A stretch of 64,000 bases of DNA from Thermoanaerobaculia bacterium (lineage in GTDB: Bacteria > Acidobacteriota > Thermoanaerobaculia > Multivoradales > UBA5704). How positions within the stretch are numbered: the first letter of the stretch is position 1; each line of letters starts with the position of its first letter. A model generated the notes under the pieces. That model saw only the letters and a program-made list of their open reading frames with translations. It was not told the DNA's origin and searched no databases. The position numbers and the translations under genes were made by a program. Location: positions 11,809-75,808 of the forward strand of contig JBBSBW010000025.1 of the NCBI GenBank assembly GCA_038250865.1, in the 5' to 3' direction. This document shows positions 4,727-19,059 of the stretch, piece by piece.

Positions 4727-5584
4727 CTACTTCTTCGCGTGGTCGTAAAAGCCGCGGCCGCTCTTGCGCCCCAAGCGGCCGGCGAGCACCATCTGCTTGA
4801 GCAACGGCGGCGGGGCGAAGCGCTTTTCGCGGTACTCCTCGAACATGATGTCAGCGATGAAGAGGGTCGTGTCCAGCCCGACGAAATCGAGCAGGGTGAA
4901 CGGCCCCATCGGGTAGCCGCAGCCGAGCTGCATCCCCTTGTCGATGTCCTCGACCGAACCCACCCCCTCTTCGAGCGCGCGGATCGCGTCGAGCAGGTAG
5001 GGGACGAGCAGCCGGTTGACGATGAAGCCCGAGTTGTCGCGCGCCGCGATCGGCTCTTTGCCGACCTTCCGGGCGAACTCGAACGCTGCGTCGAACGCCT
5101 CGTCGGAGGTGAGGATCGTGCGCACCACCTCGACCAGCTTCATCACCGGCACCGGGTTGAAGAAATGGAGGCCTACGAAGCGGTCCGGCCGCTTCGTGCT
5201 CATCGCGAGCTGGGTAATGGTGAGCGACGAGGTGTTGGAGGCGAAGATCGCCTCAGGTTTGACGATCTCGTCGAGCGCCGCGAAGGTCTTCTTTTTCTCC
5301 TCGACGTTTTCGACGATCGCTTCCACCACCAGATCGCAATCGGCGAGGTCGGAAAACTCGGTGGTGCCGGTCAAGTTGGCAAGCGCCGCATCGCGCGCAG
5401 CCGCGTCGAGCTTCCCCTTCTCGACCGCCTTGCCGAGGGAGCCTTGGATCCGCGCGAGCCCCTTGTCCAGGAACCCTTGGTTCACCTCGCGCACCACCGT
5501 CGTACAACCCGCTTTCGCCGCAATCTCGGCGATCCCGGCGCCCATCAGGCCGCAGCCCAGGACGCCCACCTTCTGAATAGCCAT
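4727..5584 (-). CDS. hbd: 3-hydroxybutyryl-CoA / 3-hydroxyacyl-CoA dehydrogenase
   Basis: MAIQKVGVLGCGLMGAGIAEIAAKAG (NAD-binding), ASNTSSL and GFIVNRLL motifs. GGAGGA RBS 5 nt upstream of the ATG at 5584. Confidence 0.9.
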   Translation of the reverse strand: MAIQKVGVLGCGLMGAGIAEIAAKAGCTTVVREVNQGFLDKGLARIQGSLGKAVEKGKLDAAARDAALANLTGTTEFSDLADCDLVVEAIVENVEEKKKTFAALDEIVKPEAIFASNTSSLTITQLAMSTKRPDRFVGLHFFNPVPVMKLVEVVRTILTSDEAFDAAFEFARKVGKEPIAARDNSGFIVNRLLVPYLLDAIRALEEGVGSVEDIDKGMQLGCGYPMGPFTLLDFVGLDTTLFIADIMFEEYREKRFAPPPLLKQMVLAGRLGRKSGRGFYDHAKK

Positions 5585-8962: not shown

Positions 8963-9955
8963 ATGAACCGAGCACACCTTCTCGCCGGGGCGCTCGCGGT
9001 CGCCGCCTGGGTCGCACCGCTCGTGGCCCAAACTTCGGCGGTGGCTCCGGAGGCAACAGCCCAACCGACCGCCACACTTCAGATCACGCTGCTCGGTACC
9101 GGCAATCCGCGGCCTAGCCTGGAGCGATTCGGCCCGTCGATCCTGGTCGAAGCCGGCGCGCAGCGGGTGTTGATCGATGCCGGACGCGGCGCCTCGCAGC
9201 GGCTGTTCCAGATCGGCGGGCGCGATGCGTTGGTGAACATCGACGCGGTCTTCTTCACCCACCTGCACTCCGACCATGTGGTGGGCCTGCCGGACCTTTG
9301 GCTCACCAGCTGGATTTTCGGCCGCGCCAAGGCGCTCGAAGTGATCGGGCCTCCCGGAACGGCGGAAATGGCCGGCCATCTCGAACAGGCCTACGCCTGG
9401 GACATCGACGCCCGCGCCAAGGACGAGGGCCATCCCCGCGAAGGCGTTCGCCTGGCGGCGAAGAACGTGCAGCCGGGCGTCGTGTACGACCGGGACGGCT
9501 TGAAGGTGACCGCCTTCGCGGTCGATCACGGCAACCTTCTCAAGCCGGCCTACGGCTTCCGTATCGATTACCGAGGGCGTTCGGCGGCGTTTTCGGGCGA
9601 CACCCGATTCTTCGAGCCGCTCGTCGAGCAGGTCCAAGGCGTCGACGTGCTGGTCCACGAGGTGGTGAGCCCCGAGGTCGAACTCAAGCGCACGCTTGTC
9701 GAAGACCCGCACGCCGTGGAGGCGATCATCGCCCACCACACCACCCCCGAGCAGGCGGGCACGATCTTCAGCCGGGTCAAGCCGCGCCTGGCCGTCTATT
9801 CGCACATCGTCCCCTCGCCCACCACGGCGGAAGACCTGATCGGTCTGACGCGCCGCACCTACGCCGGACCGCTAGCGGTGGGCTACGACCTGATGACGAT
9901 CGTGATCGGCGACACGATCGAGGTCTATCCGCGAAAGACCACGGGCGACAACTAA
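8963..9955 (+). CDS. Secreted metallo-beta-lactamase-fold hydrolase
   Basis: Signal peptide MNRAHLLAGALAVAAWVAPLVAQ. MBL motif THLHSDHVVGL and later HxxD/H pattern. Confidence 0.8.
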   Translation: MNRAHLLAGALAVAAWVAPLVAQTSAVAPEATAQPTATLQITLLGTGNPRPSLERFGPSILVEAGAQRVLIDAGRGASQRLFQIGGRDALVNIDAVFFTHLHSDHVVGLPDLWLTSWIFGRAKALEVIGPPGTAEMAGHLEQAYAWDIDARAKDEGHPREGVRLAAKNVQPGVVYDRDGLKVTAFAVDHGNLLKPAYGFRIDYRGRSAAFSGDTRFFEPLVEQVQGVDVLVHEVVSPEVELKRTLVEDPHAVEAIIAHHTTPEQAGTIFSRVKPRLAVYSHIVPSPTTAEDLIGLTRRTYAGPLAVGYDLMTIVIGDTIEVYPRKTTGDN

Positions 9956-9969
9956 CCGGAGGTTCATAC

Positions 9970-10467
9970 GTGGCCTTGCCGACCGATTTGCTGAACGAAC
10001 TGGAAGAGATGCCGCAACAGTTGGAGCGAGCCCTTCGCCAATTACCGAGCGACCGGCTCGCCTGGAGTCCGGAGTCATGGGGCGGCTGTCCCAGCGAAAC
10101 GCTCTCGGCGCTCGAACAGGTATGCCACCTGCGCGACATCGAACAAGTCGGCTACCACCTGCGCATCCGGCGGATGCTGGACGAATCGAACCCCTCGCTC
10201 GAGTCCCTGGACAGCTACGAGATCGCCCAAGAGAGGCGCTACGGTTCCGACAACCTAGAAACAGCGCTCGAAGCCTTCCGCAGCGCAAGGCAGGCCACCG
10301 TCGAGCAGCTGCAAAACCTGACCGACGCTCAGCTCGCCCGAACCGGCGAGTTCGCCGAATACGGCCGGCTTACGCTACGGTCGCTGGTCCACTACCTGCG
10401 TAGCCACGACCAGCAACACCTGGCCGGAATCCAGTGGCTGGCGGGGAAGATCGCATCGCCCGAGTAG
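9970..10467 (+). CDS. DinB_2 / DinB-like (damage-inducible, four-helix bundle) family protein
   Basis: GTG start after a GGAGG RBS. LAWSPESWGGCPSETLSALEQVCHLRDIEQVGYHLRIRRML... fits DinB_2. Stop codon 1 nt before the tRNA-fragment repeat. Confidence 0.7.
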   Translation: MALPTDLLNELEEMPQQLERALRQLPSDRLAWSPESWGGCPSETLSALEQVCHLRDIEQVGYHLRIRRMLDESNPSLESLDSYEIAQERRYGSDNLETALEAFRSARQATVEQLQNLTDAQLARTGEFAEYGRLTLRSLVHYLRSHDQQHLAGIQWLAGKIASPE

Positions 10468-10468
10468 G

Positions 10469-10524
10469 GGTGCCGGAGGCGGGACTCGAACCCACATGAC
10501 CTTGCGGCCGAAAGATTTTAAGTC
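10469..10524 (-). repeat. attR-like partial copy of the 3' 56 nt of tRNA-Leu (direct repeat of 18071..18126; 4 mismatches)
   Basis: The minus-strand sequence GACTTAAAATCTTTCGGCCGCAAGGTCATGTGGGTTCGAGTCCCGCCTCCGGCACC matches the anticodon-loop-to-3'-end of the intact tRNA at 18072..18156 and lacks the 5' half. Confidence 0.85.
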
Positions 10525-11321
10525 TCGACACCGGAACAACCTAGCACAAGTGGGGAAAAACAAGCATAGGAAAACCTCAAGCGGGATAAGGGTTTTCTTG
10601 CGCCGGTGTTTTCTGGGCTGCTCTCATTTGTACCGTCTCAGGGGCACTCGAAAGGCACCTGCGGCACCTGAAAGGCACCTGGGAGGCACCCAGGGAATCG
10701 AGAGGAATCGGAACCCGGGGAAGGTATCCCGAGATCGGGAATCGCTCTCGACCACTGCCCAAGGGTGCCAAGAATGCCAAGGGTGCCAAGTTCTCCAAGG
10801 CACTGCGCGTGGCATCCTTGGCGCCTATCGGCTATGGGGCAAGCCCCGTGGAGCCATCGATCCGCCCAGAAGCGGCTAGTGGGAGGCGGAAGGGGGCGCG
10901 AGCGCCGGGGATAGGCTCGCGGGGACGACGAATGCTGCTCTGGCAGCGGAAGCAAAAGGCGGAGCAACCGGTTTCCCTTCCGGGTCATAGTGGGAACGGC
11001 GACGACGGTTCAAAGATGCTGGGAACCTCTCCCCCCTGGCGAATCGTCGCCACGGCGCGGACCTATCTCCAAGCGAAGCAGGGAGCTTTGGACATCGGCC
11101 CGCCTCTGTTTTGGAACGAATAGAGGCGCCGAAGCCCGCCGAGCTTGCGAGGCGAGCGTGCGTACCCCCCGGGTGGGGCTTCCTCTGCCCGACCCTCTCT
11201 TTCCTCATTTTCGCTATGCTTCTGGCGTTCAAGCGCGGCTAGGTCTGGCCACCGAACGCCGGTTCCCGTACCGGAGCGCCGCGCTGTTGTTCTCTTCTGC
11301 GGGGCGCCTTCGGGGGGTGCT

Positions 11322-12044
11322 ATGGCCAAGAAATGGTTCAGTGAGTGGTGGCAATCCTTCTCCCTCGGCGTGGGTGTCACCGTGGCGGTAGGCATTATCG
11401 CTGCCGCCTGGAAGTCTTGCCCCTACCTTTGGAGATGGCTACACGAAGGGGACGGAGAAGTAGCTCACCGGGCGGTTTTCATGTTGGCCGCACTACTCTT
11501 CTGTTTGGGGTTTTTTCAGTTCTTTAGGCCGCTGCGAGTTCGAGTAGTGCCAATACCAATCCCAGCGAATGAGACTCATCTGATAGTTCAAAACCTCGGA
11601 GGAATGAACGCATTTCGAGCGACGATTGAAATTCTGGAGATTCGTCTAGGTCTGGTCAAGCATAATCCTCGGCGAACCATTTGGAATCTTGGTTGGGCGA
11701 GAAACGAAGACCGCTCGAAATATCTCCAAGCCCACCAGAGCGGCAACCTAAATATAGCTACAGCATATGTTCGGCCTGCTCAGTATAGTCATGAAAGCTC
11801 TCAAATAGTCGGCGTTTATTTAATGCCGGCAAATGGCGAAGAGGGTGAGCTTGTTATGTATTCGGGAGATGTGGGCCAAACAGATATTGACATAAAGGTT
11901 ACCGTAATCTCAGATGATCCCAAGATAGTGTCATTTCTGTTACAACCTGTTCGCCCTTTCGTTGGACGTTTCACTATTAAGGGGAGCAAGGAGGACGGCC
12001 TTTCGATTCATCACTTCGTGCGCAAAAAGAAGACTAAGCCGTGA
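11322..12044 (+). CDS. Hypothetical membrane protein (2 N-terminal TM helices + ~170-aa soluble domain), island cargo
   Basis: MAKKWFSEWWQSFSLGVGVTVAVGIIAAAW ... FMLAALLFCLGFFQFF, then a soluble domain. Lower GC than the surroundings. The upstream ORF-track extension is rejected. Confidence 0.5.
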   Translation: MAKKWFSEWWQSFSLGVGVTVAVGIIAAAWKSCPYLWRWLHEGDGEVAHRAVFMLAALLFCLGFFQFFRPLRVRVVPIPIPANETHLIVQNLGGMNAFRATIEILEIRLGLVKHNPRRTIWNLGWARNEDRSKYLQAHQSGNLNIATAYVRPAQYSHESSQIVGVYLMPANGEEGELVMYSGDVGQTDIDIKVTVISDDPKIVSFLLQPVRPFVGRFTIKGSKEDGLSIHHFVRKKKTKP

Positions 12045-12170
12045 GCCGATCAGGGCTTCCGAGCAATCTCTGTTGCCATGGCCGGAGTGCAACGAAGCGC
12101 CGAGTGCATCCAAGTGAATCTGTAGCTCGCAACGAACAGGGCGACCACCGAAGGTTCCGACCCTCGCCGG

Positions 12171-13280
12171 TTAACTCTCCCCACCCGTCTTTGAGTCCCC
12201 CGGCCCTATTTGGGGCCATGTCCAACTGGAGGAGCCGGTGGGCCTGAAAGCCTTGAAACCGAGCTTCTCCTTTCCTCTCCAGAGTGTTCGCTTCGCCACC
12301 CCAGCCGCATTAGCCTCTTCAAGGATTTCAGCTGTTGGGCGCGGCCCGTCTGCGAGCGTCACGCGGAGGAAATCGATCGCTTCATCGAGCGCGCCCGGAC
12401 TTTCGGGCGTAGGTGAAGGGGCCGGCTCCGCTAGCAGATCGGCGGCTGTCAGATCGCTCTCTCCGTCTTTCCAGGCAAAGCTACCGGCGGAGTCGATCTC
12501 GAATTCAAGCGAAGCGGACTTGGTTGGTCCGATGTTCGACTTGTGAAGGACCAGCCCCGAGCGCGAACCATCGGGAGTGCGACCGACGAGCATTACCGTC
12601 CGCGCAATCGCCGTGAACGCTACGGAGCCCGAACCGCGATACCCGACCTTGGCACTTCCTCCGCCTTTGTTTAGGTGCCGAATAATGCAGACCGAGCAGT
12701 CATTGCGAGCCGCAATCTGAACAAGCAGCCCGACCGCTTCGCGTACGTGATTATCTCGGAACAGATCGACTTTCGACGGCAGTAGCGAAGTTATCGGGTC
12801 AACGAGAAAAAACTTTGCCTCGATCCGTTTGATTTCTGCTTCGATCAAACCCGCGCCGTGCGAGTCGAGAGTGAGTCCGGCACCCGCTTCGCAGTCGATC
12901 ACGTGGACGCGGGAGAGGTCCGCGCCCATGCCCTCCATACGTGGTCGCATGGTGTCGCCGGCTCCGTCTTCGAGCGACAGCAGAAGGCTTGAACAGGGCT
13001 CGAACGGTTCGGCGCCTGGCAGGCCATCTCCGCGCGAAAGTGCCGCAGCGATGGCGGCACCGATGAATGATTTCCCGCAGCCGGGATCGCCTTCAAGGAT
13101 CGAGAGCTTGCCTAGTGCCAAGCGAAATTCCCAGAGCCAGCGAATCGGCTCCGCAGTGACGGTATCGAGGGATCGCGCTAGGTGTGGGCAAGGTTCCACC
13201 TCCCCAAGGCACTGCTCGGACTCCGGGGCCGCCATAGTGGTTCGCGATCGTGCGGTTTCTCGGGCGGTGCATTTCGTCAC
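12171..13280 (-). CDS. AAA_25/RecA-like (RepA / P4-primase-associated type) replication ATPase with C-terminal wHTH-like tail
   Basis: Walker A LSILEGDPGCGKSFIGAA, Walker B FFLVDPITSL, CIIRHLNKGG... 4-nt overlap with the upstream HTH gene. Start may be the internal Met at 13235. Confidence 0.7.
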   Translation of the reverse strand: MTKCTARETARSRTTMAAPESEQCLGEVEPCPHLARSLDTVTAEPIRWLWEFRLALGKLSILEGDPGCGKSFIGAAIAAALSRGDGLPGAEPFEPCSSLLLSLEDGAGDTMRPRMEGMGADLSRVHVIDCEAGAGLTLDSHGAGLIEAEIKRIEAKFFLVDPITSLLPSKVDLFRDNHVREAVGLLVQIAARNDCSVCIIRHLNKGGGSAKVGYRGSGSVAFTAIARTVMLVGRTPDGSRSGLVLHKSNIGPTKSASLEFEIDSAGSFAWKDGESDLTAADLLAEPAPSPTPESPGALDEAIDFLRVTLADGPRPTAEILEEANAAGVAKRTLWRGKEKLGFKAFRPTGSSSWTWPQIGPGDSKTGGES

Positions 13281-13555
13281 TTCGAGCCCCGCTTAGCCCC
13301 GCCACCGTTGCGCGCGCTGATGATTTCGAAGAATTTGCCAGAATCGATGAGAACGCGGCGGCCGAGTCGTAAAAAAGCCGGTCCGAACCCGTTCGCGGGA
13401 ATCATGTTTCGCCGAACTCCGACAAGACGAGATCGAGGCTCGCAGTCAAAAATCAGGGCTCTCAGAGCGCTTTCAGAAAACGCCGGGTGCCGCTCAGAAA
13501 ACTGCCGCACGGTCAACAGGTCCGGGGTGGGGGTGTAGTTCTCTGCCACTGGCAT
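13277..13555 (-). CDS. Small HTH DNA-binding protein, AlpA/excisionase-like
   Basis: 92 aa, MPVAENYTPTPDLLTVRQFSERHPAFSESALRALIFD... AAGGAGG RBS directly before the ATG. First gene of a coupled pair with the replication ATPase. Confidence 0.5.
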   Translation of the reverse strand: MPVAENYTPTPDLLTVRQFSERHPAFSESALRALIFDCEPRSRLVGVRRNMIPANGFGPAFLRLGRRVLIDSGKFFEIISARNGGGAKRGSK

Positions 13556-13702
13556 TACCTCCTTGCTCCTAGGGGCCGAATGGCGCCCCGAGCTTGGCTT
13601 TCGAACTGCCCGCGGATTGCGGGACAATTCCTCCGAATGCCCGACTATGGGAGAACCTCGAAGCGGCGACAACTACAAGAACGTCCTTGCAGTTTTTTCG
13701 GC

Positions 13703-14416
13703 CTACGCCTTGGAGTGCTCTGGCGAATAGGTCGCCAGTACAGCGAGCATGGGCTCCGTTAGCGGAGGGAAAGGCACGGTACGCGCTGGAAGCTTCAGAG
13801 AAGGGGGAACCCGCCACAGCTCGGCCGACTTGATTAGCCGATGCTTCTCGACCGAGTGCCGGATTGCTTCCGCATAGGCTAGAAACTCCTCGAAGTGTTT
13901 TGAGACAAAGACAAAGGGATCGAACTGCGCAGGGTCTTGAGCGATATTTCTGGGTACACCGTGGGCATTCGCCAACGAGGAAACGGCAAGGTCGAGATGA
14001 GCCACAGGACGAAATCTCTTCCAAATATTCTGAAGAGTGGTCGGCGATGCGGAGCCAGGCTTTAATGTGGCAATGATCCCGAATGCGTGTTTGGCTTTCA
14101 TTTTCACCTGCGGATGGTGCTCCGCGGCACTGAGCAGGATCGCGAGAGTTGTTGTCGCTACCCAAGTACTCTGAACGGCTCGCTGCACATCCTCCTCCAG
14201 CACCTTCGGACCTGGCGCCGTCTGCAAGTAAGGGGCAAGGAATCCAATGGACGATAGGTCGAGGTTCTCCGGGTTCTTCAATATGCCCACAAGGTAACTG
14301 GCGACAAACTCTAAACGCGCTCTTTCGTCATCGGGGTAGGTCATAATCGCCAGCGTGAGCACGGGGGCCACTGAAGCCAGTTTTCCATCACGCCCGAGAA
14401 TTGGAAGCTCCGGCAT
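13703..14416 (-). CDS. Hypothetical protein (island cargo, low GC)
   Basis: 238-aa ORF starting MPELPILGRDGKLASV... No recognisable motif. Confidence 0.4.
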   Translation of the reverse strand: MPELPILGRDGKLASVAPVLTLAIMTYPDDERARLEFVASYLVGILKNPENLDLSSIGFLAPYLQTAPGPKVLEEDVQRAVQSTWVATTTLAILLSAAEHHPQVKMKAKHAFGIIATLKPGSASPTTLQNIWKRFRPVAHLDLAVSSLANAHGVPRNIAQDPAQFDPFVFVSKHFEEFLAYAEAIRHSVEKHRLIKSAELWRVPPSLKLPARTVPFPPLTEPMLAVLATYSPEHSKA

Positions 14417-14580
14417 ACGCACGCCCTCCCGCAAGTGCCCGCAAAGGACGAGGGAGATGCACGGCGGGCCGGTGCGGGGGCCGGCTATTCGGGGATCAGG
14501 CTAGCCGCGCGAGCTTGATTCTATACTGTCCCGCACAGGTGGGAATCTTGCCGGCGTGATTCAGCATAGGGAGAGATGCA

Positions 14581-15555
14581 ATGAGAACGGGAAAGCTCTT
14601 TCTTATTCTCGGCCTTTTCTGCGCACCACTCGGCGCGCAGTCTCCAAAGGATCGAGCAGAGAACCTCGGAACTTGTCTCTCGGGCAAGTACCCTTCGCTT
14701 TGTCGATATGAACTGCTTTCCCCGGAAGATCTCGCGCGTGCTAGAGGTGCCGAGAGGCTGCAAAATCTTGAAACTTGTCTGACGGGCCTCTACCCTAGCC
14801 TGTGCAAACACGGCTTGCTCTCGGCCGATGAGACAGCCCGGGTTGACGAAGCCGAACGCCGAGAGAACCTTAAAACCTGTCTGACGGGCCTCTACCCTAG
14901 CCTGTGCAAAAGGAGTCTCCTCTCACCAACCGAGCACGCCAAAGTAACAGAGGCTGAGCGAATTGAATACCTTAAAACTTGCTTGTCAGGCCAGTTCCCG
15001 TCACTGTGCGACCATTCAAGGTTGTCGGCGGAAGAACTGAGCCGAGCTGTTCAGGCTGAGCAGACAGCTGCTGCTGACAAGAAAAGCGAGAGCCAAAGGT
15101 CAGTCCAAGCACCTCGTGCGGCGCAGCCCTGCGAAGAAGGACATTGGATTGCCAGTATCTCCGACGATGGCGAGATCGTCATTCTGGACGATAGGAGCAT
15201 CTGGGAAGTCGATTCGCTCGGCACAATAGCCTCATCGCTATGGCTCCCATATACGGCGATCTTGGTTTGTGAAGGAAGACTCATTAACACTGACGACAAT
15301 GAAGTGGTGTCTGCCGAACGCATTGAGCCTGATTCCCGTCATTCAGGCAATGGCCGCCGATTTGAAGTTCAGGCTGCTATAGATGACGAGACTTTCGTTA
15401 TCAACGGTAAAATATTCAAGGCACAGACGGCCTGCTATGGAATTTCAAGGGGAGACGAGGTTCTCTTTGTTCAGGGAAACGCAAGCGTAGATTGCGCTAC
15501 AGCAGCCTTCGTGGTGCTACCTAACTCGGAGAAATGCGAGGTCTGGTGCGAGTAA
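14581..15555 (+). CDS. Secreted protein with four tandem ~30-aa Cys-containing repeats (TCL[ST]G.[YF]PSLC...) and a C-terminal ~150-aa Cys-containing domain
   Basis: Signal peptide MRTGKLFLILGLFCAPLGAQS. Repeats ENLGTCLSGKYPSLCRYELLSPEDLARARGAERLQ / NLETCLTGLYPSLCKHGLLSADETARVDEAERRE / NLKTCLTGLYPSLCKRSLLSPTEHAKVTEAERIE / YLKTCLSGQFPSLCDHSRLSAEELSRAVQAEQ. 33-nt exact DNA repeats at 14786 and 14879. Confidence 0.6.
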   Translation: MRTGKLFLILGLFCAPLGAQSPKDRAENLGTCLSGKYPSLCRYELLSPEDLARARGAERLQNLETCLTGLYPSLCKHGLLSADETARVDEAERRENLKTCLTGLYPSLCKRSLLSPTEHAKVTEAERIEYLKTCLSGQFPSLCDHSRLSAEELSRAVQAEQTAAADKKSESQRSVQAPRAAQPCEEGHWIASISDDGEIVILDDRSIWEVDSLGTIASSLWLPYTAILVCEGRLINTDDNEVVSAERIEPDSRHSGNGRRFEVQAAIDDETFVINGKIFKAQTACYGISRGDEVLFVQGNASVDCATAAFVVLPNSEKCEVWCE

Positions 15556-16020
15556 GACCGGCTATAGGGCGGGCACCCCTATGAGAATCCATTCCAGGCG
15601 CGTCTTTTTGCTCGTCCGCTGAGGGCGGAATAGGAGCAGGTGGTTTCGTTTCTCGGTCGGCTTCGGATCGGGTTAGGGTCGAAAAAACCTCTGCGAGTTG
15701 GAGTGGGGTCTCATGTTATCTGGGAGGCGGCGCCGAATCCGAACGGGGCGGGGGGGCACCTCGCGGAGTCGGTGGGCCTTGGACTTACCTATCCCCCGGG
15801 AGGGCAGTCGGCGAATTAGACGTGGGCACCCGGTCTCTGCTCGGCTCGATACTCGGGGAGCAGAGCGTCTCTTACCCGGCCACCTAATATACCTGCGCTC
15901 TCGACGCTCGCCGGGAACTGAGAATGCCAGATCAATAAGTCTTTTCCGCTCGTCCCCTCGCGCGTACTTCCTTGAGTCTGAGATCTTTTCCCGGCGCTCG
16001 TAGTCACGAGGGGGTCAGTC

Positions 16021-17151
16021 TCAGTTAACCGGAGAGTTAACCGTGGGCGCACCCGATCCGCCCCCGGCTTCCTTCCCTCCGAAGGGGCCGGCGATCGTCT
16101 CAGGATCAATCGGGCCGAATGTAGCAATCGCCGCCCGCTCGACCACCTGGCGCGCGCGGGTAGAGCCCAGGTGCGTATAGCGGGCAACCATCGCCAGGGT
16201 CTTGTGCCCGAGCAGCTCGCGCAGCTCGCCGAGCGTTCCGCCCGCTTCGAGAAACGCACTCGCGGCAAGGTGGCGGAGATCATGGAACCGGAGCCCCGGG
16301 AGCCCCGCGCGTTGGCAGGCCGACAGCCACGCCCTCCGCGGGAAATCCGGAAACCGATCCGGCGATTCCCCGGGGATTGCGAACAGGAACACCGTACCGG
16401 GGGCCAGCGCTTCGAGCCGGGCGCGAACGATCTCTAACGCCGGCCCGACAAGGTGCAGCCGGCGGCGGTCGCCGTTCTTCGTGTTCTCGGCGATGGCCAC
16501 GCCCCACGCGAGTTCAAGATCGCCGCGACGGAGCCCGAGTAGCTCGCCCTGGCGCCCACCGGTAGCGAGTGCGAGCGTAGCGAGATCGGCGAGCCTTGGA
16601 TCGACCGCCCGGCAGGCGGTGAGCAGCCGCGCCCGTTCCTCGCTCGATACCTTAGGGAGCCGTCCCCGTGGCTCCCGCGGTCGGCGCACCTTGCGGCAGG
16701 GGTTCGCCGAGATCAAACCCGCGTCGCGCTCGCAGTAGGAGAAGAACCGCGACAGGCTCGCCAGGAACCGAACGCGAGTCGCGGGGCCAAGGGGCTTGCC
16801 GCTTGGGGAGTCACCCTCGGCGAGTGCGCCGACCGCCGCCGAGATCTCGCGGGGTGTCACCCTTTCCAGGTCAATCCCTTTGAATCGATCGGTCCACCAT
16901 TCCAGCTTGCGGATATCGAGCGGACTCCGGAGAACCGCGGCACGATAGGCGGCGATCGCATTCTCGAAGCTCACGGGACCGCCAGCCGGTAGTTTCCCGA
17001 GCTTGCGCACCTCGGTCTCGACTTCCGCCGCCCATGCCTTCGCCTCTGCGAGGGTCGAGAACTGCCGCGCCCGGTCTCGGCCCGCGACGCGACACCGCGC
17101 GAGCCATGCAACGGTGCCGCCTTTGAGGAGTCGCTTTCGATATTGGGCCAT
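16021..17151 (-). CDS. int: Tyrosine-type site-specific integrase/recombinase
   Basis: C-terminal catalytic motifs ...HDLRHLAASAFLEAGGTLGELRELLGHKTLAMVARYTHL (R..HxxR..Y). N-terminal SAM-like arm/core-binding region. Downstream of and co-oriented with tRNA-Leu. Confidence 0.9.
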   Translation of the reverse strand: MAQYRKRLLKGGTVAWLARCRVAGRDRARQFSTLAEAKAWAAEVETEVRKLGKLPAGGPVSFENAIAAYRAAVLRSPLDIRKLEWWTDRFKGIDLERVTPREISAAVGALAEGDSPSGKPLGPATRVRFLASLSRFFSYCERDAGLISANPCRKVRRPREPRGRLPKVSSEERARLLTACRAVDPRLADLATLALATGGRQGELLGLRRGDLELAWGVAIAENTKNGDRRRLHLVGPALEIVRARLEALAPGTVFLFAIPGESPDRFPDFPRRAWLSACQRAGLPGLRFHDLRHLAASAFLEAGGTLGELRELLGHKTLAMVARYTHLGSTRARQVVERAAIATFGPIDPETIAGPFGGKEAGGGSGAPTVNSPVN

Positions 17152-17273
17152 GGTTCAGAGTCCTTTCCTCGTTCTAGGTTGCGCCCAAAAAGGAACAGGG
17201 GGCAACCGTGCCAAAGCCTTGGGTCCCGGAAACTTGGCATCCTTGGCACGCTTGGCACGGTTGCCCGAAAACC

Positions 17274-17486
17274 TCATGCGTCCGCCTCTGTGCTCGGGGT
17301 GGGGTGGGAGAAATACTTGCGGACGTAGACCCGCGCCAAGTCGCGGAGCCACGTCCCGACGTCCGGCCGGTTTTGGTGCTCGGCCATCGCTTCGAAGGCC
17401 CGCTGTTCGTCCGCACTGGTGACCGTGACCGGGTAACACTTTGGCCCGGTCGGCGGCGGTGGCGGTTCCTTCCTCGGTCGTCCCAT
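17274..17486 (-). CDS. Ribbon-helix-helix (CopG/MobC-like) DNA-binding protein
   Basis: MGRPRKEPPPPPTGPKCYPVTVTSADEQRAFEAMAEHQNRPDVGTWLRDLA: beta-strand then two helices. GGAGGT RBS 5 nt after the stop of the upstream ORF. Confidence 0.5.
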   Translation of the reverse strand: MGRPRKEPPPPPTGPKCYPVTVTSADEQRAFEAMAEHQNRPDVGTWLRDLARVYVRKYFSHPTPSTEADA

Positions 17487-17490
17487 GGCT

Positions 17491-17817
17491 CTAGACCTCC
17501 GCCATGCTGAGAACGCCCCGGGGCGATGCTGAGACCGTCACCAGCTCCCATAGGTCGCGCTCGGTCGGGTTCTCCGGCGGATCGGCGAGCCTCCAGAGCA
17601 CGAACCATCGGCCGAGCAGATACTCGACCCGGAGCCCTGCTTCCTCTGGCGTTCGGGTCTCGGCGAAGTCGCCCCGGGCGATCACGTCTACGATCGTGCG
17701 CGGATCGGGGCTGAAGTGTTCCTCGGCGATCCGATCGTAGAGCCGGCGGCGAGTCGCTTCGGAGTAGCGGGAAAGGTCCAACGGCGGGGACAGGATAGGA
17801 TTCTGGCGGTCGTGCAT
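17491..17817 (-). CDS. Hypothetical protein translationally coupled to the RHH gene
   Basis: 108 aa from MHDRQNPILSPPLDLSRYSEATRRRLYDRIAEEHF... No known motif recognised. Confidence 0.4.
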   Translation of the reverse strand: MHDRQNPILSPPLDLSRYSEATRRRLYDRIAEEHFSPDPRTIVDVIARGDFAETRTPEEAGLRVEYLLGRWFVLWRLADPPENPTERDLWELVTVSASPRGVLSMAEV

Positions 17818-18071
17818 GGGATTGTTCCCCTTGCTCGGCAAGGCGTCGGGGGAGGGCTGTTATCCCTTCTCCGGCGCCGTTTTTGTTTCAGGGGGGGCGG
17901 AGCCAATCTCCGCCGCCGTCCCTGTTCTGCGGGCGGCAAGTCGAAAACCGGATCGGGGGACCGCGCGGGGAGGCGGTAGTAAGACGCAATCCTTCCCTCT
18001 GCGGCACCTGAAAGGCACCTGGAAGGAAAAGCAGGGAGGGAAGGATTAGGCTAAGTGTATGAATCCAAAAG

Positions 18072-18156
18072 GTGCCGGAGGCGGGAATTGAACCCGCATG
18101 ACCTTGCGGCCGAAGGATTTTAAGTCCTCTGCGTCTGCCATTTCGCCACTCCGGCA
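18072..18156 (-). tRNA. tRNA-Leu (anticodon UAA), class II with long variable arm
   Basis: Minus-strand GCCGGAGTGGCGAAATGGCAGACGCAGAGGACTTAAAATCCTTCGGCCGCAAGGTCATGCGGGTTCAATTCCCGCCTCCGGCACC. 7-bp acceptor stem, anticodon loop CTTAAAA, 17-nt variable arm, T-arm GGGTT/CCCGC. Confidence 0.85.
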
Positions 18157-18261: not shown

Positions 18262-19059
18262 ATGATGTCGCCCATGCGAACACCGATCTTCCAGGTTGAC
18301 GCCTTCACGACCCGCCGATTCGCCGGCAACCCCGCCGCCGTGATGCCGATGGCCGGCTTTCTGGCGGATGCGACGATGCAGGCCATCGCGGCCGAGAACA
18401 ATCTCTCCGAGACCGCTTTCCTGGTGCCCGAAGGGGGCGACTATCGTCTCCGCTGGTTCACGCCCGCCGCCGAGGTGCCGCTCTGCGGCCATGCGACGTT
18501 GGCCAGCGCCGCGGTGGTCCTGGAGCGCCTGGAGCCCGAACGCCGCCAGGTGGTCTTCCACACGGCGAGCGGGCCGCTCACCGTCCGCCGCGCCGAAACG
18601 GGTTACGTCATGGACTTCCCCGCCCGCCCCGCCGAGCCGGTCCCGACTCCGCCCGAGTTCAGCGAAGCGCTGGGCGTCGTTCCGCTCGAGGTCCGGGTCA
18701 ACGACTTCAACTACCTGGCGGTGCTCGACAGCCCGCAGATCGTGCGCAACCTGGCCCTCGATTTCGCGGCGATCACCCGCCTGGATCGCCCCGGAATGAT
18801 CGTCACCGCGGCGGGCGACGAGGGCTACGACTTCATCAGCCGCTACTTCGCCCCCGCCAAGGGAGTCCCGGAAGATCCGGTGACCGGCTCAGCGCACTGC
18901 GTCCTGGCGCCCTACTGGGCTCACAGGCTAAACAAGACGGAGTTTCGCGCCTATCAGGCCTCGCGGCGCGGCGGCGAGGTGGGCTGTCGGCTGGTTGGGG
19001 ATCGGGTCGAGCTGGCAGGGAGTTGCGTGTTCTATATGGAGGGGGAGGTGGAGGTCTGA
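18262..19059 (+). CDS. PhzF-family (phenazine biosynthesis-like) isomerase
   Basis: [24 protein letters not shown]...[21 protein letters not shown]...CGHATLASA is the PhzF/DAP-epimerase-like signature. Confidence 0.85.

Follow-up and report, generated by a model that had tools for sequence, protein, structure and literature searches.

Genomic islands that occupy tRNA genes (tDNA) are a known class (Williams 2002). In the Islander survey (Hudson et al. 2015, PMC4383910), 3,760 of 3,919 islands carried a 3' tDNA fragment and 2,083 had an anticodon-centred attP, and islands that combine the two are the commonest class. Here we analyze a stretch of bacterial DNA of 64,000 nucleotides (nt), referred to below as the window, in which we identify, with a probability that we put at about 0.9, a 7,602-bp site-specific integrative element that lies in a chromosomal tRNA-Leu(UAA) gene and belongs to a small unnamed family. 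The host is a bacterium whose closest available relative is a metagenome-assembled genome (MAG) of the Thermoanaerobaculia (Acidobacteriota). As in the Islander tDNA islands, a regenerated, intact tRNA adjoins the integrase gene, a displaced 3' fragment in the same orientation lies at the far end, the identity between the two copies extends from the anticodon stem-loop to the tRNA 3' end, and the new 3' half is supplied by the element; an integrase with the PF00589 domain, of neither the Xer nor the integron type, lies between tRNA and fragment. The integration logic differs from that of the described islands in nothing, but the gene content of the family is new. For the host class, a single, limited literature search brought up no published island of this kind.

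Several kinds of small mobile element resemble this one in part. PICMI, from the Vibrionaceae, are 6.1 kb long and carry six genes with an int/alpA/prim core (PMC10803314). Like them, the window element is built on a scale of about 6 kb and about six genes, with an integrase, one or more small regulators and one replication protein; both have a small accessory gene near int, no genes for capsid remodelling or packaging, and a circular or concatemeric form, which in the present family is represented by a relative of the window element. The two differ in that PICMI lie beside fis and the window element lies in tRNA-Leu(UAA), and in that the PICMI primase carries DUF3987 (PF13148)/DUF5906 (PF19263) whereas the window element has an AAA_25 protein (PF13481). 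The AlpA protein of PICMI (PF05930 or PF12728) has no Pfam match among the small open reading frames (ORFs) of the window, even at an E value of ≤5. The proteins are unrelated, the host phylum is different, and the window element is not known to have a helper phage or to be induced.

The PICI, cfPICI and P4-like elements share with it a tyrosine integrase, a gene in the helix-turn-helix (HTH) position just upstream of a helicase-type replication gene and, in the case of P4, insertion into a tRNA gene. However, the window element is about half their size, has none of terS, capsid, ppi/rpp, sid, psu or delta, and has neither a recognizable primase domain nor an identified repressor. The tycheposons of Prochlorococcus (Hackl et al., bioRxiv 10.1101/2020.12.28.424599) are similar in their tRNA-specific tyrosine recombinases, replication helicase/primase, exchangeable cargo, an integrase type that tracks the tRNA target, module swapping and the absence of self-transfer machinery; they belong to another phylum, the window element is smaller and its proteins are without annotated relatives, and the comparison is one of functional layout only. 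A prophage can be set aside, as the 7.6 kb hold no virion structural or lysis genes and are too small. The element lacks the testable defining features of PICMI, PICI, P4-like elements and prophages, and the most fitting description is that of a tDNA-integrated, replication-competent, helper-dependent island of an undescribed family. An earlier reading of the same DNA from its letters alone (here called the original prediction) had likened it to phage satellites, PICI-like elements or small integrative mobilizable elements rather than to a prophage. The small, non-prophage nature holds; no hallmark of a PICI or of an integrative mobilizable element was found, and the element can be said only to work like such helper-dependent elements, not to belong to them.

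RESULTS

A displaced tRNA-Leu 3' fragment marks the far end of the element

The single tRNA gene that ARAGORN calls in the 64-kb window is a tRNA-Leu(UAA) at 18071-18155 on the minus strand, which is intact and chimeric and scores 60.1 bits with the Rfam tRNA model. Its 3' 56 nt (18071-18126) recur in the same orientation at 10469-10524, with 52 of 56 positions identical (93%) and a spacing of 7,602 nt. Read in the orientation of the tRNA, it runs from G30, which lies two bases 5' of the anticodon loop, exactly to the last base of the tRNA. We therefore read the copy at 10469-10524 (minus strand) as the displaced native 3' fragment, corresponding to tRNA positions 30-85 and forming the far-end att site (attR in tRNA orientation), and the copy at 18071-18126 (minus strand) as the attL core, which was supplied by the element and joined to 29 nt of chromosomal 5' sequence. 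The element thus measures 7,602 bp from core to core, or 7,658 bp with both cores. A blastn-short search of the whole window returned these two copies of the tRNA sequence and, as the next best match, a stretch of 11 nt. With no third fragment in the window, a chance repeat is ruled out, and so is an independent degenerate tRNA pseudogene cluster, the alternative that the original prediction had itself named.

The displaced fragment begins one base past the TAG stop codon (10465-10467) of a 166-aa (amino acid) ORF. This position is as the original prediction had it, but the gene, there called dinB-like, encodes a member of the DinB_2 superfamily (PF12867, 4.7e-15) and not DNA polymerase IV. 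The 56-nt imperfect repeat with four mismatches, in the same orientation, was likewise described correctly, and so was the tRNA, whose coordinates had been placed one base too high (18072..18156). The regenerated tRNA, with the integrase gene as its neighbour, has received its new 3' part from the element, and the native part is displaced by 7.6 kb. Together with the related elements described below, the intact tRNA and the displaced fragment support the attL/attR pair that had been proposed for an integrase-mediated insertion into the 3' part of tRNA-Leu.

The tyrosine integrase (16021-17151, minus strand) has 376 aa and matches PF00589 (1.4e-19) and the phrog_1 integrase family (1.2e-54), in agreement with its earlier assignment. 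The NCBIfam models for XerC/XerD and for integron integrases score far below their cutoffs (66 bits versus 335). The G+C content is 0.601 in the element and 0.643 and 0.658 in the flanks. As had been noted from the sequence, the cargo is lower in G+C than the chromosome: orf240 stands at 0.49, orf324 at 0.53 and orf237 at 0.56, with the cargo and replication genes together ranging from 0.49 to 0.61. The integrase module, at 0.66 to 0.68, is host-like.

A relative with an uninterrupted tRNA-Leu identifies the native 3' end

The PhzF-like gene beside the tRNA has its closest relative, at 91% aa identity, in a Thermoanaerobaculia bacterium MAG (JBBRUC010000158.1; locus L002, the L numbers being our labels for related loci compared with the window). 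L002 carries an intact, uninterrupted tRNA-Leu(taa) at L002:6946-7031 and no integrase. The 3' 56 nt of this tRNA are identical to the window's displaced fragment at 54 of 56 positions, and the two have the T-loop TTCGAGT in common, while the T-loop of the window's intact tRNA is TTCAATT. Because the T-loop of L002 equals that of the displaced fragment, we conclude that 10469-10524 is the native 3' end and that the 3' half of the intact tRNA is derived from the element. This arrangement of native fragment and element-derived half is the one that integration with strand exchange near the anticodon loop would be predicted to leave. When attB is reconstructed from the 5' 29 nt of the tRNA and the displaced fragment, ARAGORN still calls tRNA-Leu(taa). 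The displaced fragment has two further C-to-T changes, which turn G-C pairs into G.U pairs and keep the pairing.

The TTCGAGT T-loop had been remarked upon in the far copy and is now accounted for by the uninterrupted gene of L002. Of the empty site that had been proposed as a check in related genomes, L002 shows the uninterrupted tRNA-Leu with its native T-loop; the window's exact flanks were not found without the element.

Related elements recur in tRNA-Leu, in tRNA-Lys and as a circular assembly

Further loci were reached through homologues of the AAA_25 protein and of the orf237 product. Independent genomes repeat the architecture of the window element; one relative was assembled as a circle, and another uses tRNA-Lys. 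In locus L082 (GCA_031404815.1), a sister element of 6.06 kb occupies the same tRNA-Leu(taa) in another genome, and the flank next to the tRNA carries the OPT transporter gene known from the window (86% nt identity). Its gene order is orf114-orf70-int ... orf237-HTH92-AAA_25, closed by the same far arm and 56-nt repeat. The core segments of L082 and the window are 81 to 91% identical in nt sequence, and the cargo is different at two positions. The integrases of the window, L082 and L094 all have 376 aa, and that of the window is 91% identical to the other two.

Locus L094 (GCA_964494545.1, CAZBRN010000049.1) is a contig of 6,411 bp that carries all of the core genes and has an exact terminal overlap of 55 bp. 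Its identical first and last 55 nt indicate that it was assembled as a circle; they are located upstream of int and outside the att core. L094 contains a single 56-nt core (5434-5489) that joins the far arm to the int-side arm, and ARAGORN finds no full tRNA in it. The core junction is attP-like, which would mean that the element is mainly circular, or in tandem, in the L094 sample. The attP junction of an excised circle, which the original prediction had proposed to look for, was accordingly seen in this relative and not for the window's own element. The T-loop of the L094 core, TTCGACC, is that of the int-proximal tRNA of L082. Because the attP T-loop of L094 equals that of this tRNA, the int-proximal 3' half can be recognized as element-derived here as well.

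The same gene order is found beside tRNA-Lys(ttt) in L089, L090 and L091, where the element is 7.5 kb long and is bounded by a direct repeat of 70 nt that begins at the anticodon stem. The integration module of L094 is of the L082 type (98 to 100% aa identity), and its orf242-HTH-AAA_25 module is of the L089 type (79 to 84% aa identity), with an AAA_25 protein 37 to 39% identical to that of the window. These identities show modules for integration and for replication that have apparently been shuffled among members. Judged by their genes and arms, the loci are a small, seemingly undescribed family of elements of 6 to 7.6 kb, of which four versions were found.

The att arms carry two separate repeat systems

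The stretch next to the displaced fragment (10525-11321, no strand assigned) is non-coding, with no ORF conserved across members, and probably carries the P arm of attP; it might also be the place of a replication origin. Over positions 10469-10821, the window and the far arm of L082 are 86% identical, and in the circular L094 this arm lies immediately next to the core.

Two clusters of the repeat GGCACCTG stand out as putative arm-type sites. One lies in the far arm (10639-10686, plus strand), with exact copies at 10654, 10663 and 10674 and degenerate copies besides, and the other, with exact copies at 18003 and 18014, lies in the int-side (P') arm (17999-18026, plus strand). The repeats are all in direct orientation, about 130 to 185 nt from the far core in the first cluster and 45 nt from the tRNA 3' end in the second, and 17999-18026 is 96% identical to 10659-10686. 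Exact copies of GGCACCTG number 11 in the 64 kb versus 1.9 expected, and five of them are in the two arms of the element. The clusters occupy the same positions in L082 and L094. In L089, ATGGTCCAC occurs twice at both arms in place of GGCACCTG, and the integrase is only 58 to 60% identical. Because the arm repeats change along with the integrase in L089, we read the GGCACCTG repeats as arm-type integrase sites, to which the integrase would bind in both arms through an N-terminal arm-binding domain. Both integrases match Arm-DNA-bind_4 at residues 31-48 below threshold (E value of 0.08 for that of the window).

The second system consists of TGCCAAG-NN units. An array of three to four units with a 9-bp period (10757-10792, plus strand) is a putative binding array for a regulator or excision factor, and three more units upstream of int (17233-17257, minus strand) form a putative operator in the region 17200-17266, enclosed by a perfect 15-bp inverted repeat (17200-17214 and 17252-17266). 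The TGCCAAGNNTGCCAAG pattern occurs four times in the window, always inside the element, with none expected. The far array is kept in L082, in L094 and in the tRNA-Lys element L089, and the layout of array and inverted repeat upstream of int is shared by L082, L089 and L094, in the last of which it is found at the start of the contig. Since the TGCCAAG arrays are kept in L089 despite its changed integrase sites, they are probably bound by a conserved small protein or a host factor.

A reading of the TTGGCAC repeats as sigma-54 sites was rejected by eye, as the spacing is unfit. A scan for promoters and terminators gave counts not above those of shuffled sequences.

Six core genes surround two cargo positions

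The core genes keep the order orf108-orf70-int ... orf237-small HTH-like ORF-AAA_25, and the cargo varies at two positions. PHROG and Pfam scans took in all eight ORFs of the element and returned matches for the integrase and the AAA_25 protein only. Neither these scans nor NCBIfam detected capsid, packaging, terminase, relaxase, coupling-protein or conjugation/secretion genes among the element ORFs, and the claim that structural phage genes are absent holds for both PHROG and Pfam.

The AAA_25 gene (12171-13280, minus strand; PF13481, 3.5e-22) encodes a RecA/DnaB-like ATPase that is a putative replicative helicase; it starts at 13280 (GTG) or at 13235 (ATG, giving 354 aa, as in L088). The protein is 90% identical to its L082 orthologue. 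Its PHROG matches fall on the C-terminal halves of the "DNA polymerase/primase" and "primase/helicase" families, and many homologues, 500 to 640 aa long, carry a PrimPol, Toprim, DnaB_N or RepB-primase domain at the N terminus. More distant relatives in phage and plasmid records are named "AAA family ATPase," "AAA+ ATPase domain protein" or "DNA primase/polymerase." The earlier label of an AAA_25/RepA-like replication ATPase is thus right in its domain and is better put as the helicase/ATPase part of a primase-helicase type, with no primase domain detected.

Directly upstream of this gene, and possibly overlapping it, is a small ORF of 92 aa (13277-13555, minus strand) that is conserved at 67 to 84% in all four elements. 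An hhalign comparison with an HTH_17 protein encoded upstream of a distant AAA_25 homologue gave a weak match (E=0.05), and we regard the ORF as a candidate, unproven, for an AlpA/HTH_17-like regulator or excision cofactor. The small gene orf70 (17274-17486, minus strand) is 63 to 76% identical across the elements, shows a beta-alpha-alpha pattern and aligns weakly with a NikA/TacA-like ribbon-helix-helix protein (hhalign probability of 43%, E value of 2.5e-4); a ribbon-helix-helix DNA binder is possible and unproven. The AlpA-like HTH and ribbon-helix-helix labels that these two ORFs had received from the sequence are not upheld by any profile match, and the pairwise alignments are at most suggestive.

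The most conserved small core protein is that of orf108 (17491-17817, minus strand), 70 to 73% identical to its orthologues in L082, L089 and L094. It has 24 homologues, and the only source names given for them are Acidobacteriota and Thermoanaerobaculia. Its AlphaFold model (pLDDT score, 82.5) gave no significant fold match. The distant orf108 contexts L103, L105 and L109 are chromosomal or other islands, and TGCCAAG arrays were not found in these more distant contexts. The product of orf237 (13703-14416, minus strand), predicted to be all-alpha, is 62 to 77% identical in L082, L089 and L094. It is 49% identical in L092, where it belongs to another island that also contains SymE toxin, HTH_31 and NikA/TacA-like genes. 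An exhaustive profile search of a 50% representative library (E value of ≤1e-3) placed it in a family of 336 clusters without annotation. The family includes proteins of 440 to 590 aa in which the orf237 domain is C-terminal; ten of these long fusion relatives showed no Pfam domain. The AlphaFold model of orf237, built from a five-sequence alignment, is unusable (pLDDT score, 45).

Segments 11158-12163 and 14511-15683 are additional or different in comparison with L082, so we take them as the cargo positions. The first, which has no counterpart in L082, contains orf240 (11322-12044, plus strand), which encodes about 240 aa with hydrophobic segments and has the lowest G+C content of the element. 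The second contains orf324 (14581-15555, plus strand), found only in the window element; an unrelated ORF of 185 aa takes its place in L082. The 324-aa product has a signal-peptide-like N terminus, four 34-aa Cys repeats and a C-terminal domain. The repeats have a consensus of roughly ENLxTCLTGLYPSLCxxxLLSxxExAxVxEAER and correspond to a DNA repeat of 102 nt in four copies (14658-15000). Neither cargo gene has a Pfam, PHROG or NCBIfam match. An assignment of the cargo as defence genes was dropped, as PADLOC gave no match.

Evidence bearing on the lifestyle of the element

The locus could in principle be the decayed remnant of a prophage or larger island that has become fixed and immobile. The two extra substitutions in the displaced fragment would fit such a history, as would the fact that only the occupied state was found for the window's genome and that most element genes cannot be annotated. 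However, the six core ORFs are intact with lengths that match their orthologues, including the integrase with its 376 aa in three elements; the compact layout is repeated in tRNA-Leu, in tRNA-Lys and in circular form; the element contains no remnants of structural genes; and neither the two arm-site clusters nor the anticodon-loop regions of the two cores are damaged. We therefore consider decay very improbable.

The surroundings of distant AAA_25 homologues raise the possibility of an integrative mobilizable, or "hitcher," element that moves by conjugation, vesicles or transformation, with an unrecognized oriT and a relaxase provided in trans, as in a cargo-type tycheposon or an oriT-only island. 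In L084 to L086, such homologues (42% aa identity) have an HTH_17 gene before them and a NikA-like/MobC relaxosome-accessory gene after them, and the weak alignment of orf70 to a NikA/TacA-like protein points in the same direction. The two cargo slots and the module swapping resemble the tycheposons (bioRxiv 10.1101/2020.12.28.424599). On the other hand, no ORF matches a relaxase, MOB, coupling-protein (T4CP) or type IV secretion system (T4SS) family, and the orf108-orf70 homologues occur in a phage rather than in a conjugative element. This explanation seems to us unlikely.

The phage in question is a contig of 50 kb in which Pfam recognizes capsid, portal and tape-measure genes (L096, Logan SRR22868772) and which carries adjacent homologues of orf108 (52% aa identity) and orf70 (68 aa, 70% identical over 44 aa), 67% identical in nt sequence over 610 bp. 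This would fit a minimal phage satellite that works like PICMI or PICI, which would stay integrated until a tailed-phage helper arrives and would then be excised, replicated by its AAA_25 helicase and packaged in helper capsids, with no capsid-remodelling genes of its own. A size of 6 to 7.6 kb and a set of genes consisting of int, small regulators, a replication ATPase and unknowns resemble PICMI (PMC10803314). The circular or concatemeric form of L094 is also consistent with a satellite, and so is a 4-kb scaffold from human faecal virus-like particles (L112, MT839806.1) that holds just an integrase and an AAA_25 protein 31% identical to that of the window. Against this, satellite hallmarks are absent (the AlpA Pfam families, the DUF3987/DUF5906 primase, terS, capsid, ppi, sid, psu and delta), and the PHROG matches stop at the integrase and the AAA_25 protein. 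In IMG/VR, neither the attP pattern nor orf237 nor orf108 had a match, and the relatives of the integrase and the AAA_25 protein were distant, with at most 40% identity. The TGCCAAG arrays were not found in the examined 20 kb of L096, and the genes in common with phage may just reflect a shared gene pool. With its putative helper, induction and packaging, the satellite explanation is in our view possible but doubtful.

Some observations on these loci stand apart from the question of transfer. In L096:1-20339, the orf108 and orf70 homologues lie in a cluster of small early-type genes and are followed by an 82-aa gene related to orf153 of L092. In L112:1-4018, deposited as "Bacteriophage sp.," the integrase (Arm-DNA-bind_4 and PF00589) is followed by the AAA_25 protein; similar records of 4 to 6 kb (MT839393, MT839352 and MT837713) may be minimal int-plus-helicase elements in virus-like-particle preparations. 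The distant AAA_25 homologue in L084:9431-13265 has 418 aa and lies in a defence-island-like region with CHAT, DndB-like and Prok-E2/ThiF/JAB/Patatin genes.

Gene content on the two sides of tRNA-Leu

The window (18262-19059, plus strand) and L002 both have a PhzF-family gene between OPT and the tRNA; L082 lacks it, and there only about 130 nt separate OPT from the tRNA (L082:2448-2581). The other side of the tRNA differs in all three: DinB_2 and a metallo-beta-lactamase (MBL) gene in the window, an AraC-type gene in L002, and DUF2541/BrnT in L082. Because both the presence of PhzF and the opposite flank differ among the three, both sides of tRNA-Leu are variable. Upstream of DinB_2 and outside the element, the MBL-fold gene (8963-9955, plus strand) corresponds to L111:3829-4821; it matches the Pfam families Anti-Pycsar_Apyc1 (PF23023) and Lactamase_B and has a signal-peptide-like N terminus.

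L002 also has a degenerate full-length copy of tRNA-Leu (L002:9163-9250), not called by ARAGORN, with a TIR_2 gene (L002:8049-8891, minus strand; PF13676, 2.4e-13) between the two copies. Over L002:6946-9290, the copies are 2.2 kb apart. The same upstream flank comes after both copies, together with a small membrane ORF that is similar in the two places, and no integrase is present. The doublet resembles a segmental duplication or another type of insertion at the tRNA 5' side.

DISCUSSION

Our results argue for a site-specific integrative element in tRNA-Leu(UAA). Several points weigh against this reading or parts of it. An exact empty site, in which the DinB_2 and PhzF flanks border an uninterrupted tRNA, was not found through PhzF or DinB_2 or in a single scan of genome contigs. 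L002 is not collinear on the 3' side of the tRNA, where it has the AraC-type gene, and it has a 2.2-kb insertion of its own on the 5' side with a second degenerate tRNA-Leu copy. For the far-end junction, only one independent assembly was found, L111 (Logan SRR19962010), which shows the occupied state and is 100% identical to the window, and neither an attP nor an attB junction of the window's own element was seen. The circular contig of L094 could represent a tandem array instead of an episome. The two differences that set the displaced fragment apart from every other copy may mean that the insertion is old. With respect to the genes, no primase domain was detected in the window's AAA_25 protein, and neither the 92-aa ORF nor orf70 has a Pfam (E value of ≤5), PHROG, NCBIfam or PDB-profile match. 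Finally, the crossover position, the repeat-binding proteins, the excision factor and the origin are all things that we infer.

A course of events consistent with the layout can be proposed for this integrative element. Strand exchange would take place in or near the anticodon loop, with the N-terminal domain of the integrase bound to the GGCACCTG repeats in both arms. The orf70 product or that of the 92-aa HTH-like ORF may bind the TGCCAAG arrays and thereby control int expression and the direction of recombination. The excised circle would be replicated with the helicase-type AAA_25 ATPase, with priming by orf237, by the host or by a helper, and two positions would carry exchangeable cargo genes. 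Transfer between cells would use a helper: as the element holds no capsid, packaging, relaxase or secretion genes, it must depend on one, and a phage is the leading, though unproven, candidate because homologues of orf108 and orf70 occur in a tailed phage. It is tempting to go further and to see here the first phage satellites of the Acidobacteriota, minimal in form, which L096-type tailed phages would induce and package by way of the shared orf108-orf70 pair and which would shuttle secreted and membrane cargo among soil Thermoanaerobaculia; we offer this as speculation, even more tentative than the satellite explanation itself.

The integration event is a textbook case, in which a tyrosine integrase has replaced the 3' half of a tRNA and left the displaced fragment at the far end. 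The value of the finding is descriptive: for a soil lineage that has received little study (Thermoanaerobaculia, Acidobacteriota), it defines a compact family of recurrent elements with a core of six genes, of which four are without known relatives. The family combines att arms with two separate repeat systems, evidence of a circular form, module swapping, and a switch of target between tRNA-Leu and tRNA-Lys with a matching change of the arm sites. Without a helper phage, the element would be one more small island with an unknown transfer route; if a helper phage is indeed involved, it would extend the idea of the "minimalist satellite" beyond the Vibrionaceae.

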